A stretch of DNA of 6,776 nucleotides from a bacterium (GTDB lineage: Bacteria > Sysuimicrobiota > Sysuimicrobiia > Sysuimicrobiales > Humicultoraceae). Shown one piece after another: positions 3,001 to 6,776 of the stretch (its first letter is position 1; every line of letters begins with the position of its first letter). The stretch spans positions 1-6,776 of the forward strand of contig JBGQGY010000159.1 in the NCBI GenBank assembly GCA_041497675.1. Direction: 5' to 3'. Made by a program: the position numbers.

Positions 3001-6000
3001 GACTCCGGCACGATCCTCGCGAACCTGCTGGCCGCGGCGGCAGGCTACGACGTTCCGGCGCGGATCGTCTGCGGCTTCTTCGACGCCGAGGTGAACCGGT
3101 TGCTGGATCTCGACGTGGAACGCGAGGTCGCGCTGGCACTGGTGCCGCTCGGCCGTGATAAGGCCACACCATCCGGACCATCGGGTCTCACGGTCGATCC
3201 GCTCGGCTTCCCAACGATCCCGCTCTCGAAGGAATCGGTGGATTATCCACAGATCCGGGCGATGCACGTGGCCTCCTCGCTGCGCTCAGAAGATGACGTG
3301 AGAGCATGGCGCGCTGAATCGGGCGCAGCCAGCCCGGGCGCTAACACGGCGTTCCACGCGGCGGACGTGCGAGCCTCGTCGAGGGCGCTCGTCGCGCTTC
3401 AACCGCTTGAGCATCCGGACTTGCCAACAGACTCAATCGCCCGTGTCATTGTCCGTCGGGGCTCGAGCCGGCGGTTCGCCCGCGAGTCGATCAGGTTCGC
3501 GCAGCTCTCGACGATCCTTGACCGGGCGACCCGGGGCATTCCAGCAGACTTCTTCGAACCATCCGGCGAGCGGGTCGAACCGACGGGCGCGATACTCAAC
3601 ACACTGTATCTGATCGTTCACGCTGTGGAAGGACTGGCGCCCGGCGCCTACGTCTTCGACCGGTACGCTCGAGCCCTTGAGCTGTTGAAGGAAGGGAACT
3701 TTCGAAGGGAGGCCGGCTACCTCGGACTCGAACAGAACCTCCCCGCCGACGCCAGCGTCAACGTATACGTCCTGGCGCATCTGCCGCCGATTCTAGAGCG
3801 ATTCGGCAATCGCGGCTACCGCGTCGCACAGCTCGACGCGGCCATCACGGGCGGAAAGCTCTACCTGGCAGCGTATACCCTCCGCCTCGGCGCCACTGGT
3901 CTCACGTTCTATGATGACGACGTGACGGCATTCTTCTCGCCACACGCCGCAGGGAAGAGCGTCATGTTCCTGACGGCGTTGGGCCGACTACTGAAGCGGA
4001 CGCCTAGGAGCCCAGTGGATTGAGCGCGCCCAGCTTCTACGAGAGTAGGCCGCGATCGTTCCTCGTATCCAGCAGGCTCAGTTCGCCGATCCAGTCCGGG
4101 ACAAGTGAGTCTGCAATTCTTGCCCACGCGCGAACGACACTTTCTTTCTTGGTCCACAGGTGATCTAGTGGCGAGGCAAGCTGGTACTTGGCGGCGAGAT
4201 CGGCCTGGGCAAGCGCAGCATACCGCAGATTAGCGTCAATGGCCCGGAACGCCTGTTAGGGGTCCAGACGTAATCGCGTTGAATCTTTTGTCTCTCTCAG
4301 AGTACCTTGCTGAGGTGCATGCGGCCTTCATAGAGAGCGCGCCCGACGATGACGCCTTCCACGCCAGTGCGAGCCAGAGCCGCGAGGTCGGCCTCCGAGG
4401 CCACCCCACCAGCCGCAATGACCGGAACGGCAACAGCCCGCACAAATGCCCCGATGGTCGGGGCATCGGGCCCGGCGAGAGTCCCGTCGCGGGCAATATC
4501 AGTGTAGACCAATCGGCAAATGCCCCGCGCCGCCAGCATCTTCCCCAGACTGATGGGATCCGCTGCGGACAGCACTGTCCACCCTTCGACGGCGACACGA
4601 CCATCTCGGACGCCGAGCGAAACAGCGACCTGCTCACCGAACTGGCGGCTCGCTTCCTCCGCCAGGGTCAGGGCATCGGTGCCCAACAGCACGCGCGCGG
4701 CCCCGGCATCCAGTACCTCCTCCAGGTGGCTCACCGCGCGGACGCCGCCGTCGACCTGGATTGGCACGCCCACAGCCGCAATCGACCGGATGACGTCAAG
4801 CTGAACGGGGTGTCCTGTGAGCGTCCCCTCCAGATCCACCACGTGAAGCCACCTCGCCCCCTCACGTACCCACCGCGTAGCCGCTTCGACCGGATCATCC
4901 GCGTACACTGTTTGGGGCCGTGCATCGCCCGGAACGAATCGCACGCAGCGGCCTCGCCACACATCGATGGCGGGGATGATTTCCATCCGTGACTCCTCGG
5001 GCCCAGCTCCTCCTGGCACGGGCCCCTCTTGCGAAGACGCAATCTTCCGCACTATCTGATCACCCCCCACGACCGCCAGTAGATCCCGGACGAGGCGGCC
5101 GTCAGGCAGGCACGCGTCTGGATCAAGCTCCGCAAGCGGCAGAAGAACGAACCGCCGATGCGGGAGCTCCGGATGCGGGATCCTGAGCCGGTCGGAATCC
5201 ACGATGCGTTGGTCATAGAGCAGCAGATCGATATCGATCATGCGCGGCCCCCACCGGACCGTCCGAGTCCGACCAAGCCCGTCCTCCACCCGCTGCAGCA
5301 CATCCAGAAGCGCATGCGGGTCAAGCGTCGTCTCAATCAGCAGGACCCGATTGAAGAACCAGGGCTGGGATACCAGACCCACGGGTTCGGTCTCGTAGAT
5401 CGACGAGCGGGCCAGAAGGCAAATCCCCGGTACGGCGGCCAGCCGAGTTTCGGCCTCCCGCAGCAATGTCAGTCGATCACCCAGGTTCGAGCCCAAGCCA
5501 AGGTACGCGCGGGACATCCCTAGGACGCACGCCGGCGGGTGATCTCAACGGCCGCGTAGTCGAGAGGGCCACCGAGCTGCACCTGTGGTTTCTTGATGCG
5601 GACGGTCACCGTGACCACGCCCGGGAGCCGCAAAATTCTTCCAGCGACCGCGTCGCTCAACGCCTCAAGCAGGTAGAAGCGCTCCTCTTCGATGGTGTGC
5701 TTGACCATCCTATAGAGCTCACGGTAGTCCAGGGTCAGCGCCAGGTCATCTCGGGTCGATGCTTCAGGAAACTCCCCTTCCACTTCCACGTCGACGATGA
5801 AGGGTTGTGCCTGGTTCTGCTCCTCTGGCAGCACACCGTGGCGGCCCATAAATCTCATGCCGTGCAATTGAATCTTATGCATTCCTTAGGATGGCATCGG
5901 ACATTCTGGCGACACGAACCATTGACTGCACATCGTGTACGCGGACAATGTCCGCTCCTTGGGCGATGGCAAGGGCGACAGTAGCCGCTGTGCCTTCTAA

Positions 6001-6776
6001 GCGCTCGTTCACGGGAAGGCCTCCTAGTACCTTGCCGATGGTTCCCTTCCGAGAGGTGCCAATGACGATTGGCCGCCCCAGGGACCGAAGCTCTCCGAGA
6101 CGCCGCAGGATTTCTAAGTTCTCCTGCACCGTCTTGCTGAACCCAAACCCGGGGTCGATCAGAATACGGTCGAGCGCGATACCTACCGCCACAGCCGCCT
6201 CGATCCTCTCGGTCAGAAAGGCACGCACCTCGTGGAGAATGTCACGAGAGACGGAGTTCTGCGGTATCCTCCAAGGCATGCCCCACCCGTGCATGATCAC
6301 AACCGGGACCTGAGCCTCCGCCACGACCATGGCCATCTGAGGATCTCCTCGCAGCGCACTGACGTCATTGATCATCGCGGCCCCGGCTCGCAGGGCCTGC
6401 CGTGCCACTTCCGGCTTCGTCGTATCGACCGACACGACGGCACCGAGCTCACCCACGAGGCGCGTGATGAGGGGGATGACCCGGCGGAGTTCCTCGGCCA
6501 GCGGCACGGGCTCAGCTCCATGGCGAGTGGACTCCCCGCCCACGTCAAGGATGTCGGCGCCCTCCGCGGCGAGCATTCTCCCCCGGGTCAATGCCGCCTC
6601 GAGTTCCATCACGCCATCACCCGCGAAGGAGTCAGGCGTCACGTTGAGGATGCCCATGGTATATGTTCGCCGGCCTAGCTCAAGGCGCAGCCGGCCGACC
6701 TGCAAGGTTCCCATAGGGCTGTAGGCGGGGATTCCCCTTCGCTGAGCCCACCCCGTCAACTAAACCCCCCGCACGC

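Follow-up and report, generated by a model that had tools for sequence, protein, structure and literature searches.

The synthesis of folate and the other pterins is regarded as having to start with GTP cyclohydrolase I, and to our knowledge only two replacements for this enzyme exist: FolE2 and, in Chlamydia, a TrpF that moonlights in the role. The locus described here raises the question of how this step is filled in a bacterium of the family Humicultoraceae in which neither FolE nor FolE2 is found, and what a barrel of the HisA type (HisA') does in its folate operon, joined to FolK in a single reading frame. The window, the whole stretch of DNA analysed, is the entire contig JBGQGY010000159.1 (6,776 nt) and belongs to a metagenome bin, G000, that is 98.6% complete in 272 contigs.

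The locus and the fused gene

The genes run in the order folP, folB and then, downstream, the folK::hisA' fusion (Table 1), with the last 8 nt of folP lying inside folB. ORF and domain calls agree with a first-pass annotation of this DNA that placed the fusion inside a folP-folB-folK operon and read one ORF as FolK followed by a full HisA-type barrel. Pfam locates HPPK at residues 5-133 of the fusion (E 1.1e-37) and His_biosynth (PF00977) at residues 179-400, over positions 1-227 of the 228 in the profile (E 7.6e-67). The FolK part, encoded with folB and folP, passes the curated NCBIfam cut-off TIGR01498 (139.4 bits versus 54.1). An Rfam scan of six hisA' loci returned no riboswitch and no other Rfam family, and no conserved extra ORF was found when the hisA' clusters were compared upstream of folP.

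Table 1. Features of the folate locus, with the evidence that places each of them
Feature	Position	Strand	Evidence
folP, dihydropteroate synthase, 294 aa	5875..6759	(-)	Pterin_bind E 8e-78; TIGR01496 288 bits vs cut-off 162.6
folB, dihydroneopterin aldolase, 120 aa	5520..5882	(-)	FolB E 4.4e-32; TIGR00525 90.3 bits vs cut-off 72.15
Fused ORF folK::hisA', 406 aa + stop	4297..5517	(-)	ORF call, Pfam, NCBIfam
FolK (HPPK) part, residues 1-164	5026..5517	(-)	HPPK 5-133; end placed by comparison with unfused relative L166
Codon GGG (Gly165), site of former folK stop	5023..5025	(-)	TGA in L166, TGG in L123/P0002 (junction comparison, codon table)
Linker, residues 166-177, translated former folK-hisA' spacer	4987..5022	(-)	Junction comparison
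HisA' barrel, residues 178-406	4300..4986	(-)	His_biosynth match, AlphaFold2 model, beta5-Asp-less clade
Asp185 (domain position 8), equivalent of Salmonella HisA Asp7, kept	4963..4965	(-)	Invariant in 72/72 aligned sequences
Asp256 (domain position 79) instead of first Gly of GGG loop	4750..4752	(-)	Gly in 94/99 canonical, Asp in 9/9 group-1
Gly302 (domain position 125) instead of beta5 Asp (Salmonella D129, PriA D130)	4612..4614	(-)	Alignment
Asp344 (domain position 167, RDG motif), retained counterpart of Salmonella HisA Asp176, the catalytic acid	4486..4488	(-)	Invariant in 72/72

A HisA-type barrel without the beta5 aspartate

The barrel has 47.4% identity to the HisA of its own genome over 234 aa and 32.2% to HisF over 205 aa, in line with the 47% and 32% reported earlier. 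It falls below the NCBIfam equivalog cut-off TIGR00007 (222.3 bits versus 228.95) and below that of PRK13585 (203 versus 243). An AlphaFold2 model, with a mean pLDDT of 94.8, predicts the (beta-alpha)8 fold of HisA and PriA, and superposes on the PriA/HisA structures 3zs4, 4tx9 and 5a5w with TM scores of 0.91-0.92.

Asp7 of Salmonella HisA is reportedly the catalytic base, and its equivalent is among the residues retained throughout the clade of related barrels (D8, the RDG motif, GG at 193-194 and GR at 215-216, in domain numbering). As described in part of PMC9088769, the acid in the Salmonella enzyme is D176, stacking on ProFAR is provided by W145, and R83 together with S103 holds the distal phosphate; the simulations reported there were run with D7N reverted. 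Judged by alignment, HisA' keeps both catalytic Asp residues as well as the C-terminal 5'-phosphate site.

The position of Gly302 aligns to the Asp of 'GLDVR' in solved PriA/HisA chains. This Asp is found in 99/99 canonical HisA sequences, whereas it is Gly in all nine sequences of group 1 of the clade and T, A, I, S or V in all 11 of group 2; the clusters P0122 and P0123 also lack it. In the available text of PMC9088769, the substitutions D129N and D130A lead to loss of activity. The GGG loop, changed in group 1 by G79D, probably borders the distal-phosphate site, given the roles of R83 and S103. Further changes in the clade are R10 to W or H/Q/Y, Q19 to P, D53 to E and A55 to T or L/M/I; T103 is Ala in 5/9 group-1 and 5/11 group-2 sequences, and in group 2 G102 has become D or E and the GW motif is lost. 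The protein of the window retains R83, T103 and W136 and has changed at G79D and A104D. The part of the pocket that takes the distal half of ProFAR appears eroded, more so in group 2, and some binding of ProFAR by group 1 is possible, since this group retains R83, the GW motif and, in G000, T103.

On these residues HisA' is no ordinary HisA. The earlier description of a 'complete second copy' therefore holds for the length of the barrel and fails for its function, the beta5 Asp being gone, and the caveat attached to it, that a changed substrate is not visible in the sequence, is overturned by the loss of an Asp that is invariant in canonical HisA.

The clade and the origin of the fusion

The barrels without the beta5 Asp form a clade of 22 protein clusters at 90% identity, nested inside canonical HisA when HisF is the root. 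Group 1, the fused forms and their close kin, joins group 2, the barrels resembling that of the family genome G002, with a support of 95 (97 for group 1 alone and 99 for group 2 alone), in a tree that is a quick search with SH-aLRT as its only support. The copy of G002 bears in NCBI only the name 'HisA/HisF-related TIM barrel protein'. A collection of genome contigs gave no relative when searched with a 176-aa piece, and 80 canonical HisA loci, all at or below 48% identity, when searched with the clade alignment; a degenerate DNA pattern applied to metagenome contigs gave 73 loci, six of them of the clade. One clade locus, L114, is a hairpin-like misassembly and was left out of the neighbour evidence. 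The hisA' part is under purifying selection, with dN/dS of 0.11 (against L123) and 0.21 (against L166), compared with 0.21-0.40 for FolK, FolB and FolP.

The fusion with FolK is a young and labile state that arose from loss of the folK stop codon. The stop passed from TGA through TGG to GGG, and because it mutated, the 36-nt spacer between folK and hisA' is now translated. A Shine-Dalgarno-like GAGGAG persists in the linker at 4993-4998, 6 nt upstream of the former ATG of hisA'. In L168, L160 and L163 the folK stop and the hisA' start overlap (ATGA, GTGA), and the fusion is dispensable, as close relatives retain the two as separate, translationally coupled genes. The same five fused protein clusters that had been counted before (71-97% identity) were recovered, at 97, 73, 72, 71 and 73% identity. 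The fusion is accordingly as real as first annotated, and labile and recent, the conserved feature being the folK-hisA' gene pair rather than its joined form. Fusion would bind FolK and HisA' to equal dosage; no contact between the two is claimed, because their steps are non-consecutive.

Gene neighbourhoods

Within the clade, gene context can be read for ten clusters (P0001-P0006, L166, G002, L168 and L160/L163), and in 10/10 FolK lies directly upstream of hisA' or is fused to it. As a control, fol genes occur at 0/57 canonical-HisA loci of the same scan of metagenome contigs. Among the readable contexts hisA' never lies beside trp genes nor in a his operon. The one family genome in which an unfused folP-folB-folK-hisA' set had been reported was found again: it is G002 (a bin, 97% complete, 60 contigs), whose hisA' has 59-60% identity.

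In FolE-bearing kin belonging to these two genera, namely G022, G001 and G003, there is a folE-SDR-folB-folK island together with a folP-folK pair that lacks folB and hisA'. The loss of hisA' coincides with that of folB, precisely where the folE-folB island is present. In G015, which has FolE, hisA' is reduced to a C-terminal relic of ∼70 aa. A FolK-FolE2 fusion of the same architecture as FolK-HisA' occurs in G081 and G083, both of genus g28, a sister genus in the same order.

GTP cyclohydrolase I and the other pathway genes

Profile and tblastn searches of the bin agree with the earlier finding of a genome without either GTP cyclohydrolase I. PF02649 (FolE2) had no match in G000, the best match to PF01227 (FolE) reached 15.7 bits in an ORF that is QueF, and tblastn with FolE from two relatives gave nothing below E 0.17. 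FolE and FolE2 were likewise not found in the bin of G002. The reported distribution of FolE, in 60/94 genomes of the order and 10/33 other family members, was reproduced. Eleven family genomes bear FolK: eight have FolE, one (G023) has FolE2, and the two with neither, G000 and G002, are exactly those in which hisA' occurs. Across the phylum 7/66 FolK-bearing genomes without hisA' also lack FolE and FolE2, and a Fisher test on the resulting 2-by-2 table gives ∼0.016 with kinship ignored.

The remaining genes named in the first annotation were located in G000: an ordinary hisA adjacent to hisF on C28, trpF on C73, and RibBA (408 aa; GTP_cyclohydro2 E 1.1e-73) on C71; G002 has two RibA loci. With RibBA, TrpF and an ordinary hisA present, HisA' is unneeded for histidine or tryptophan. 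PF00186 (DHFR) is absent from G000 and G002, and likewise from the FolE-bearing G001. For the pABA branch no match reaches the PabB cut-off, the best being a trpE-like gene of the trp cluster, and no candidate phosphatase for dihydroneopterin phosphate was found. The FolE-dependent queuosine genes queD and queC were tried as a discriminator for FolE and set aside, with PF01242 absent and PF06508 giving weak partial matches in all five genomes tested.

A predicted route to dihydroneopterin phosphate

HisA' is probably an Amadori isomerase dedicated to one step, in which dihydroneopterin phosphate is made from the RibA product; it would be a permanent form of the bypass that TrpF runs in Chlamydia. 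The folP-folB-folK-hisA' set would form a self-contained pterin module in which HisA' replaces GTP cyclohydrolase I. The predicted route has four stages: (i) RibBA (GTP cyclohydrolase II) would make 2,5-diamino-6-ribosylamino-4(3H)-pyrimidinone 5'-phosphate; (ii) HisA', with an Asp base/acid pair and a 5'-phosphate site but no pocket for the other half of ProFAR, would open the ribosyl ring and perform the Amadori rearrangement; (iii) the ketose would close onto the 5-amino group, giving 7,8-dihydroneopterin 3'-phosphate; (iv) a phosphatase would remove the phosphate, after which FolB, FolK and FolP would continue. FolE and FolQ would thereby be bypassed. A bypass of this kind had been proposed in the first-pass annotation, and the new evidence, all of it in favour, is circumstantial: the lost Asp, the link to folK, the phyletic pattern, and the presence of RibBA, TrpF and ordinary hisA. 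What is observed is the gene content, the way the fusion arose, the residue changes, the synteny, the phyletic pattern and the purifying selection; substrate, product and ring closure are predicted.

On balance, the evidence also leans slightly towards a wider claim, that HisA' founds an enzyme family not described before, a synthase of dihydroneopterin phosphate that descends from HisA and serves this purpose alone. Such an enzyme would give free-living bacteria a folate route from GTP cyclohydrolase II without cyclohydrolase I or FolQ and, having given up the beta5 Asp along with the distal pocket for ProFAR, would be a natural counterpart of laboratory conversions of HisA to TrpF.

Other readings of the barrel

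The substrate of HisA' cannot be read from its sequence, and the barrel might be a remodelled isomerase in other pterin- or flavin-related chemistry, acting on a different ribosylamine such as 5-amino-6-(5-phosphoribosylamino)uracil or another GTP-derived intermediate, or feeding a further cofactor, for example F420, or some other consumer of riboflavin-pathway intermediates, with the missing FolE explained by salvage, another enzyme or an assembly gap. This is unlikely, while having some observations on its side. In G002 and L168 the genes that come after hisA' are cofD, cofC and one for a luciferase-like oxidoreductase, and seven FolK-bearing bins (G034, G043, G045, G049, G072, G073 and G078, 72-94% complete) show none of FolE, FolE2 and hisA'. 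The link to cofD is, however, confined to those two contexts and absent in L160, L123 and G000, whereas the link to folK extends to every readable one, and hisA' and folB disappear jointly where a folE-folB island stands. We know of no step in F420 synthesis that requires an Amadori isomerase.

It is less likely still that a FolE gene exists and was left unassembled or unbinned, HisA' being a spare or decaying HisA copy beside folK and the fusion a neutral read-through. Both genomes with hisA' are metagenome bins, so that a short folE contig could have remained unbinned; the 7/66 count means that a cyclohydrolase I gap arises in ∼11% of the FolK-bearing bins of the phylum that lack hisA'; the folP start is 17 bp from the end of the window contig; and a single base change toggles the fusion. 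Against this, G000 lacks the entire folE island along with the genes that flank it, and the metagenome contig L123, 98% identical and reaching 1.7 kb beyond the window end, has no folE upstream of folP in that extra sequence. The dN/dS of the barrel shows that it is under selection, 61 columns are invariant among 15 clade sequences that reach down to 52% identity, and the beta5 Asp is gone in 22/22 clusters, which suits neither a working HisA nor random decay. A spare HisA would also stand beside the ordinary hisA-hisF pair that the genome already has.

A D127V change in HisA is said to lead to acceptance of phosphoribosyl-anthranilate (PRA). That HisA' is a PRA isomerase, TrpF-like or bifunctional in the manner of PriA, is nevertheless very improbable: D129 repels the carboxylate of PRA (PMC9088769, in part) and laboratory HisA variants become able to accept this substrate once the beta5 Asp is lost, but G000 and G002 each have an ordinary trpF beside trpE, hisA' always follows folK and never lies by trp genes, and PriA, the sole isomerase in a genome without trpF, retains D130 where HisA' has Gly.

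Relation to known systems

The closest parallel to the proposed dihydroneopterin-phosphate route is the bypass in Chlamydia. There, according to the available part of Adams et al. 2014 (PMC4161248), TrpF forms H2NMP from the RibA product, and an E. coli strain deleted for folE is complemented by it. Both systems lack FolE and FolE2, have RibA, are proposed to use a (beta-alpha)8 phosphoribosyl Amadori isomerase and leave FolQ unneeded. The Chlamydia enzyme is the organism's only TrpF, a moonlighting protein that keeps its PRA isomerase activity, as the available text of that paper describes, whereas HisA' is a separate HisA-derived paralog in a fol operon, fused to FolK in some lineages, with trpF and hisA of its own genome elsewhere, and its activity is predicted. 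A side activity of HisA' on PRA would fit the main reading, as Chlamydia TrpF has both activities. The hosts differ as well: the phylum considered here is free-living in soil and hot springs, and Chlamydia is an obligate intracellular parasite.

With HisA and PriA the barrel shares the fold, both catalytic Asp residues and a C-terminal phosphate site; it differs in lacking the beta5 Asp (D129/D130), in a distal-phosphate and ProFAR-stacking site that seems eroded, in falling below the TIGR00007 cut-off and in lying outside the his operon. Like subHisA and HisAp/subTrpF, it is a natural shift of specificity within the HisA family. It also resembles the laboratory conversions of HisA to TrpF, by directed evolution in Thermotoga and real-time evolution in Salmonella, in which the barrel was retargeted to a smaller ribosylamine via changes at or near the beta5 Asp, loop 1, G102 and lost W145 stacking (PMC9088769, in part). 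The laboratory variants act on PRA, while HisA' represents a lineage that arose in nature, is maintained by purifying selection and lies among folate genes. HisA' would fill the same pathway gap as FolE2 (GCYH-IB, PF02649), which genus g28 fuses as the C-terminal partner of an N-terminal FolK, but fold and chemistry are unrelated, FolE2 acting directly on GTP and making a triphosphate.

Apart from the Chlamydia paper, a literature search found none that joins HisA with FolK and FolE. Folate and pterin are unmentioned in PMC4462073, and in the available text of the phylum paper, PMC11604079, the word 'folate' is unused and tetrahydrofolate occurs only in the name of a ligase. The same text has the phylum's carbon fixation relying on tetrahydrofolate, through the Wood-Ljungdahl and reductive glycine pathways.

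Significance

If the proposed role is correct, a dedicated HisA-derived enzyme would be the third replacement of GTP cyclohydrolase I and the first in free-living bacteria, and calls of 'folate auxotrophy' made from genomes without folE would change. The clade would also provide work on enzyme evolution with a natural, datable series from canonical HisA to group 1, in which the beta5 Asp is lost and the Trp kept, and on to group 2, in which loop 5 and the distal phosphate site are also gone. Gene fusion and fission can be traced in this clade at single-base resolution.

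The folK-hisA' fusion and its operon

Contig C159 (6,776 bp, all of it the window) lies in a bin of 3.97 Mb and 272 contigs (completeness 98.6%, contamination 3.6%), here G000, which belongs to the phylum Sysuimicrobiota and, following the first-pass annotation, to the family Humicultoraceae. That annotation reported a fusion of FolK with a HisA-like barrel (HisA') downstream of folP-folB, and the open reading frames, Pfam and NCBIfam bear it out: HPPK covers residues 5-133 of the fusion and His_biosynth residues 179-400, over the entire profile. The FolK part scores well above the cut-off of the NCBIfam FolK model, and the barrel, at 222.3 bits, slightly below the HisA equivalog cut-off of 228.95. 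The barrel is 47.4% identical to the HisA and 32.2% to the HisF of its own genome. Elsewhere in the window, the Cons_hypoth698 frame shares ∼100 nt at its 5' end with the start of the SagB-like gene, so that the Cons_hypoth698 gene may be incomplete or have a wrongly placed start.

Coordinates of the features discussed (L, loci; G, genomes; C, contigs)
Feature	Location	Strand	Remark
PEBP-family gene	window 3-245	+	incomplete, cut by contig start
AAA_14/DUF4143 ATPase	window 270-1610	-	adjoins PEBP-family gene
Cons_hypoth698 (YeiH-like) membrane protein	window 1723-2463	-	only profile positions 81-270 of 304 matched
SagB-type dehydrogenase, 554 aa	window 2359-4023	+	TIGR03605 in two stretches; converges on fol operon
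folK::hisA' fusion, 406 aa	window 4297-5517	-	third head-to-tail gene
Former folK stop codon	window 5023-5025		GGG
folB	window 5520-5882	-	between folP and fusion
folP	window 5875-6759	-	head to tail with folB
hisA' relic, ∼70 C-terminal aa	L007 4131-4331 (G015:C236)	-	…GTLAGPD…GRALYEGWLDL
Group-1 hisA', two abutting parts	L114 4010-4863		opposite strands
folE island	L016 3968-8878 (G001:C1)		
FolK-FolE2 fusion, 515 aa	L176 3666-5213 (G083:C11)	-	HPPK then GCHY-1
FolK-FolE2 fusion, 492 aa	L177 3268-4746 (G081:C12)	+	HPPK then GCHY-1
GTP cyclohydrolase II, G002	C46:627-1121		
GTP cyclohydrolase II, G002	C8:12784-13272		
queF, G000	L001 1495-1887 (C131)	+	PF14489, E 3.9e-28
HisA-like protein with glyoxalase-like domain, 376 aa	L118 1447-2577	+	

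Fusion and fission

The folK/hisA' junction was compared across relatives. In the metagenome locus L166 (83-91% identical to the window), FolK ends in ...ASPQE followed by TGA, and hisA' starts 36 nt further on in the same frame, preceded by a Shine-Dalgarno-like GAGGAG motif. The codon of the former stop is TGG in L123 (98% identical, cluster P0002) and GGG in the window; the fusion is the product of a lost folK stop codon, so that the former spacer is now translated as a 12-residue linker, in which the old ribosome-binding site and ATG of hisA' still lie. Fused forms at 71-73% identity have linkers that differ from that of the window, and P0007, at 95% identity, is a free, unfused protein of 229 aa, so fused and free states alternate among relatives. 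In distant relatives folK and hisA' are separate and stop overlaps start (ATGA in L168, GTGA in L160 and L163), and in G002, a second hisA'-bearing genome of the family, the spacer is 40 nt. What is conserved is the coupled folK-hisA' pair, of which the fusion is the newest form.

The HisA' clade

The alignment contains 119 HisA-like proteins from a protein search (free proteins, and the barrel parts of the window fusion and of five other fusions), along with the own-genome HisA and the hisA' product of G002. The aligned sets are 99 canonical HisA, nine proteins of group 1 (fused forms and close kin) and 11 of group 2 (G002-like). A quick maximum-likelihood tree with HisF as root unites groups 1 and 2 in one clade inside canonical HisA, with an SH-aLRT support of 95 (97 for group 1 alone, 99 for group 2 alone). 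A second search, with the G002 copy as query, adds only clusters P0122 and P0123, which brings the clade to ∼22 clusters among 5.8 billion proteins. The AlphaFold2 model of HisA' (pLDDT 94.8) resembles PriA and HisA (TM 0.91-0.92). For the barrel, dN/dS comes to 0.11 against L123 (10 synonymous, three non-synonymous differences) and 0.21 against L166, over the first 74 L166 codons; these values equal or lie below those of folK, folB and folP (0.21-0.40), and hisA' is not decaying.

A different HisA-like family occurs on metagenome contigs (L118, L126, L121, L099). Its proteins begin with FPDIEI, where Glu replaces the base Asp; in ISITGKDG a Thr takes the place of the beta5 Asp, and DRFENG lacks the RDG acid. 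They are probably not isomerases, and the L118 member is fused with a glyoxalase-like domain.

Active-site residues

Residues of HisA' at positions that differ from canonical HisA (Met178 of the fusion is position 1)
Position	Canonical	Group 1	Group 2
10	Arg	Trp	His/Gln/Tyr
19	Gln	Pro	
53	Asp	Glu	Glu
55	Ala	Thr	Leu/Met/Ile
79	Gly	Asp	
102	Gly		Asp/Glu
103	Thr	Ala in ∼half	Ala in ∼half
125 (beta5 Asp)	Asp 99/99	Gly 9/9	T/A/I/S/V 11/11
135-136	Gly-Trp	kept	lost

Across a broader alignment of 72 sequences, Asp8, Asp167 (of the RDG motif) and Gly193-Gly194 are invariant, and Arg216 of the Gly215-Arg216 pair nearly so. Position 125, the Asp of 'GLDVR' when aligned with solved PriA and HisA chains, is Leu in P0122 and Gly in P0123. 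In a study of Salmonella HisA, D176 serves as catalytic acid, W145 stacks against the substrate ProFAR, R83 and S103 grip its distal phosphate, and D129 repels the carboxylate of PRA, the smaller substrate; D129N loses activity (PMC9088769). Read against these roles, the kept residues suggest that HisA' has retained the chemistry by which the ribosyl ring opens and undergoes Amadori rearrangement, as well as the site that binds the reacting 5'-phosphate. The pocket that receives the distal half of ProFAR appears to be dismantled to some extent in group 1 and thoroughly in group 2. The earlier caveat that a change of substrate was not evident from the sequence is overturned by these residue changes, the clade and the dN/dS of the barrel.

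Neighbours of hisA'

Searching metagenome contigs with a degenerate DNA pattern designed for the clade gave 73 loci. Fifty-seven are canonical HisA with Asp at position 125, none with a fol gene and 15 adjoining hisF, and six belong to the HisA' clade. The order folP-folB-folK-hisA' is found in four of these (L123, L166, L168, L160), and folK-hisA' is visible in the short L163. In the sixth, L114, the first 140 residues of a group-1 hisA' abut the last 97 on the opposite strand, which looks like a hairpin-type misassembly and is uninformative on neighbours. With duplicates removed, FolK lies directly upstream in 10 of 10 clusters with readable context, including G000, G002 and four other fused clusters; 12 further clusters, whose context is unreadable, stand outside this count. 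No folE lies beside hisA' in the readable contexts. L123 extends 1.7 kb past the end of the window contig and adds only a junk frame and a divergent flavoprotein gene; neither a further conserved frame nor a riboswitch was found with the module.

Downstream of hisA' in G002 and L168 lie cofD, cofC and a luciferase-like gene, which are absent from that place in L160, L123 and the window. Such neighbours would suit a HisA' that acts on another substrate or serves another cofactor, an unlikely explanation since cofD/cofC occur in two contexts only against folK in 10 of 10.

Distribution of hisA' and GTP cyclohydrolase I

Earlier counts of five fused clusters, one unfused relative, and FolE in 60 of 94 genomes of the order and 10 of 33 other family members were reproduced. 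Among the 34 family genomes (unpublished G024, without FolK, counts in denominators only), 11 have FolK: eight with FolE, G023 with FolE2 (E 1e-89), and G000 and G002 with neither. These two alone among 94 phylum genomes have a second complete HisA-like gene. In the genera of G000 and G002, the genomes that do have FolE (G022; G001 and G003) possess a folE-SDR-folB-folK island (SDR, short-chain dehydrogenase), behind which G001 has genes for a DUF1537 four-carbon acid kinase and pdxA; the same island type occurs at L015 (G022:C191) and L018 (G016:C34). Island folB and folK share only 29-50% identity with their window counterparts, and island carriers also have a folP-folK pair without folB and hisA' (L008, L009, L014). 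Two states thus alternate in both genera, a folE island with a stripped folP-folK or a self-sufficient folP-folB-folK-hisA'. FolE-bearing G015 retains a group-2-like hisA' relic, its first ∼160 residues gone, directly behind the stop of an unrelated heavy-metal-associated domain gene.

In genus g28 of a sister family, FolK is fused to FolE2 in G081 and G083, and in G082 the pair shares one open frame, so that within the same order a true GTP cyclohydrolase I occupies the place after FolK. Such a fusion is not known to have been described; no search was aimed at it.

Across the phylum FolK is present in 68 of 94 genomes, of which 55 have FolE, four FolE2, two hisA' and seven none of the three (G034, G043, G045, G049, G072, G073, G078; 72-94% complete, 200-620 contigs). 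No hisA' lies in the folB-folK cluster of G045 and G072, the two examined. Most of the seven fall in genera with FolE-bearing members, which makes incompleteness the likely cause; trivial reasons thus account for the failure to detect a cyclohydrolase I in ∼11% of such FolK-bearing bins. For both hisA' genomes to lack it by chance, p is ∼0.016 (Fisher's exact test, 2/0 versus 7/59; two genomes, kinship uncorrected). It is quite unlikely that folE is present but unassembled and HisA' a spare HisA, given the selection on hisA', the universal loss of the beta5 Asp in the clade, the joint loss of folB and hisA' from FolE-bearing relatives, and the missing island flanks: G000 lacks FolE, the island kinase, pdxA and the flanking frame of G022.

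The remaining pathway

RibBA of G000 (408 aa) has both domains. G000 and G001 have one GTP cyclohydrolase II locus each and G002 two, the second of which could be an extra RibA feeding the pterin branch, or contamination (6%). In G000 hisA and hisF are adjacent on C28. A TrpF-like role for HisA' is highly improbable, as both G000 and G002 have trpF within a trp cluster and hisA' never lies beside trp genes. Dihydrofolate reductase (PF00186) has no match in the whole genomes of G000, G002 and FolE-bearing G001, though FolC and FolP are present; the enzyme may be of a non-canonical type, the folE-island SDR being one candidate in G001. No PabB match reaches the cut-off. Both gaps are common to kin and have no bearing on hisA'. 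In the five genomes tested (G000, G002, G001, G022, G023) queD is absent and queC has no real match; queF in G000 points to salvage of preQ0 and not to queuosine synthesis de novo. There is no other demand in the cell for dihydroneopterin triphosphate.

A putative RibA-fed pterin branch

GTP cyclohydrolase I breaks open the imidazole ring of its substrate GTP, with loss of formate. GTP cyclohydrolase II halts after the first half, at the 5'-monophosphate of the same diaminopyrimidinone riboside. Adams et al. (PMC4161248) showed that the TrpF of Chlamydia turns this RibA product into dihydroneopterin monophosphate and complements an E. coli strain deleted for folE; they also remark that HisA performs the same type of rearrangement. 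A bypass of this kind is proposed here: RibA would supply the monophosphate to the pterin branch, HisA' would turn this presumed substrate into dihydroneopterin monophosphate, with a presumed ring closure, and a phosphatase would act next, followed by FolB, FolK and FolP. HisA' seems equipped for the second half, with an Asp base and acid and a phosphate site for the reacting ribose phosphate, and features needed for ProFAR alone appear lost. This combination, alongside the observed anatomy, clade, synteny, distribution and selection, is read as that of a dedicated isomerase of the RibA-fed branch, the interpretation we lean towards; it is highly probable that the barrel is a HisA paralog neofunctionalised for one role or another in pterin synthesis.

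A literature search outside subscription journals found no publication describing a HisA-derived folate bypass, and the Sysuimicrobiota phylum paper does not discuss folate synthesis. A bypass by RibA and a barrel isomerase is already known from Chlamydia. If the proposal is true, what is new is a separate HisA-derived family devoted to the bypass in the fol operon of free-living bacteria, with its fusion to and fission from FolK caught in the act.
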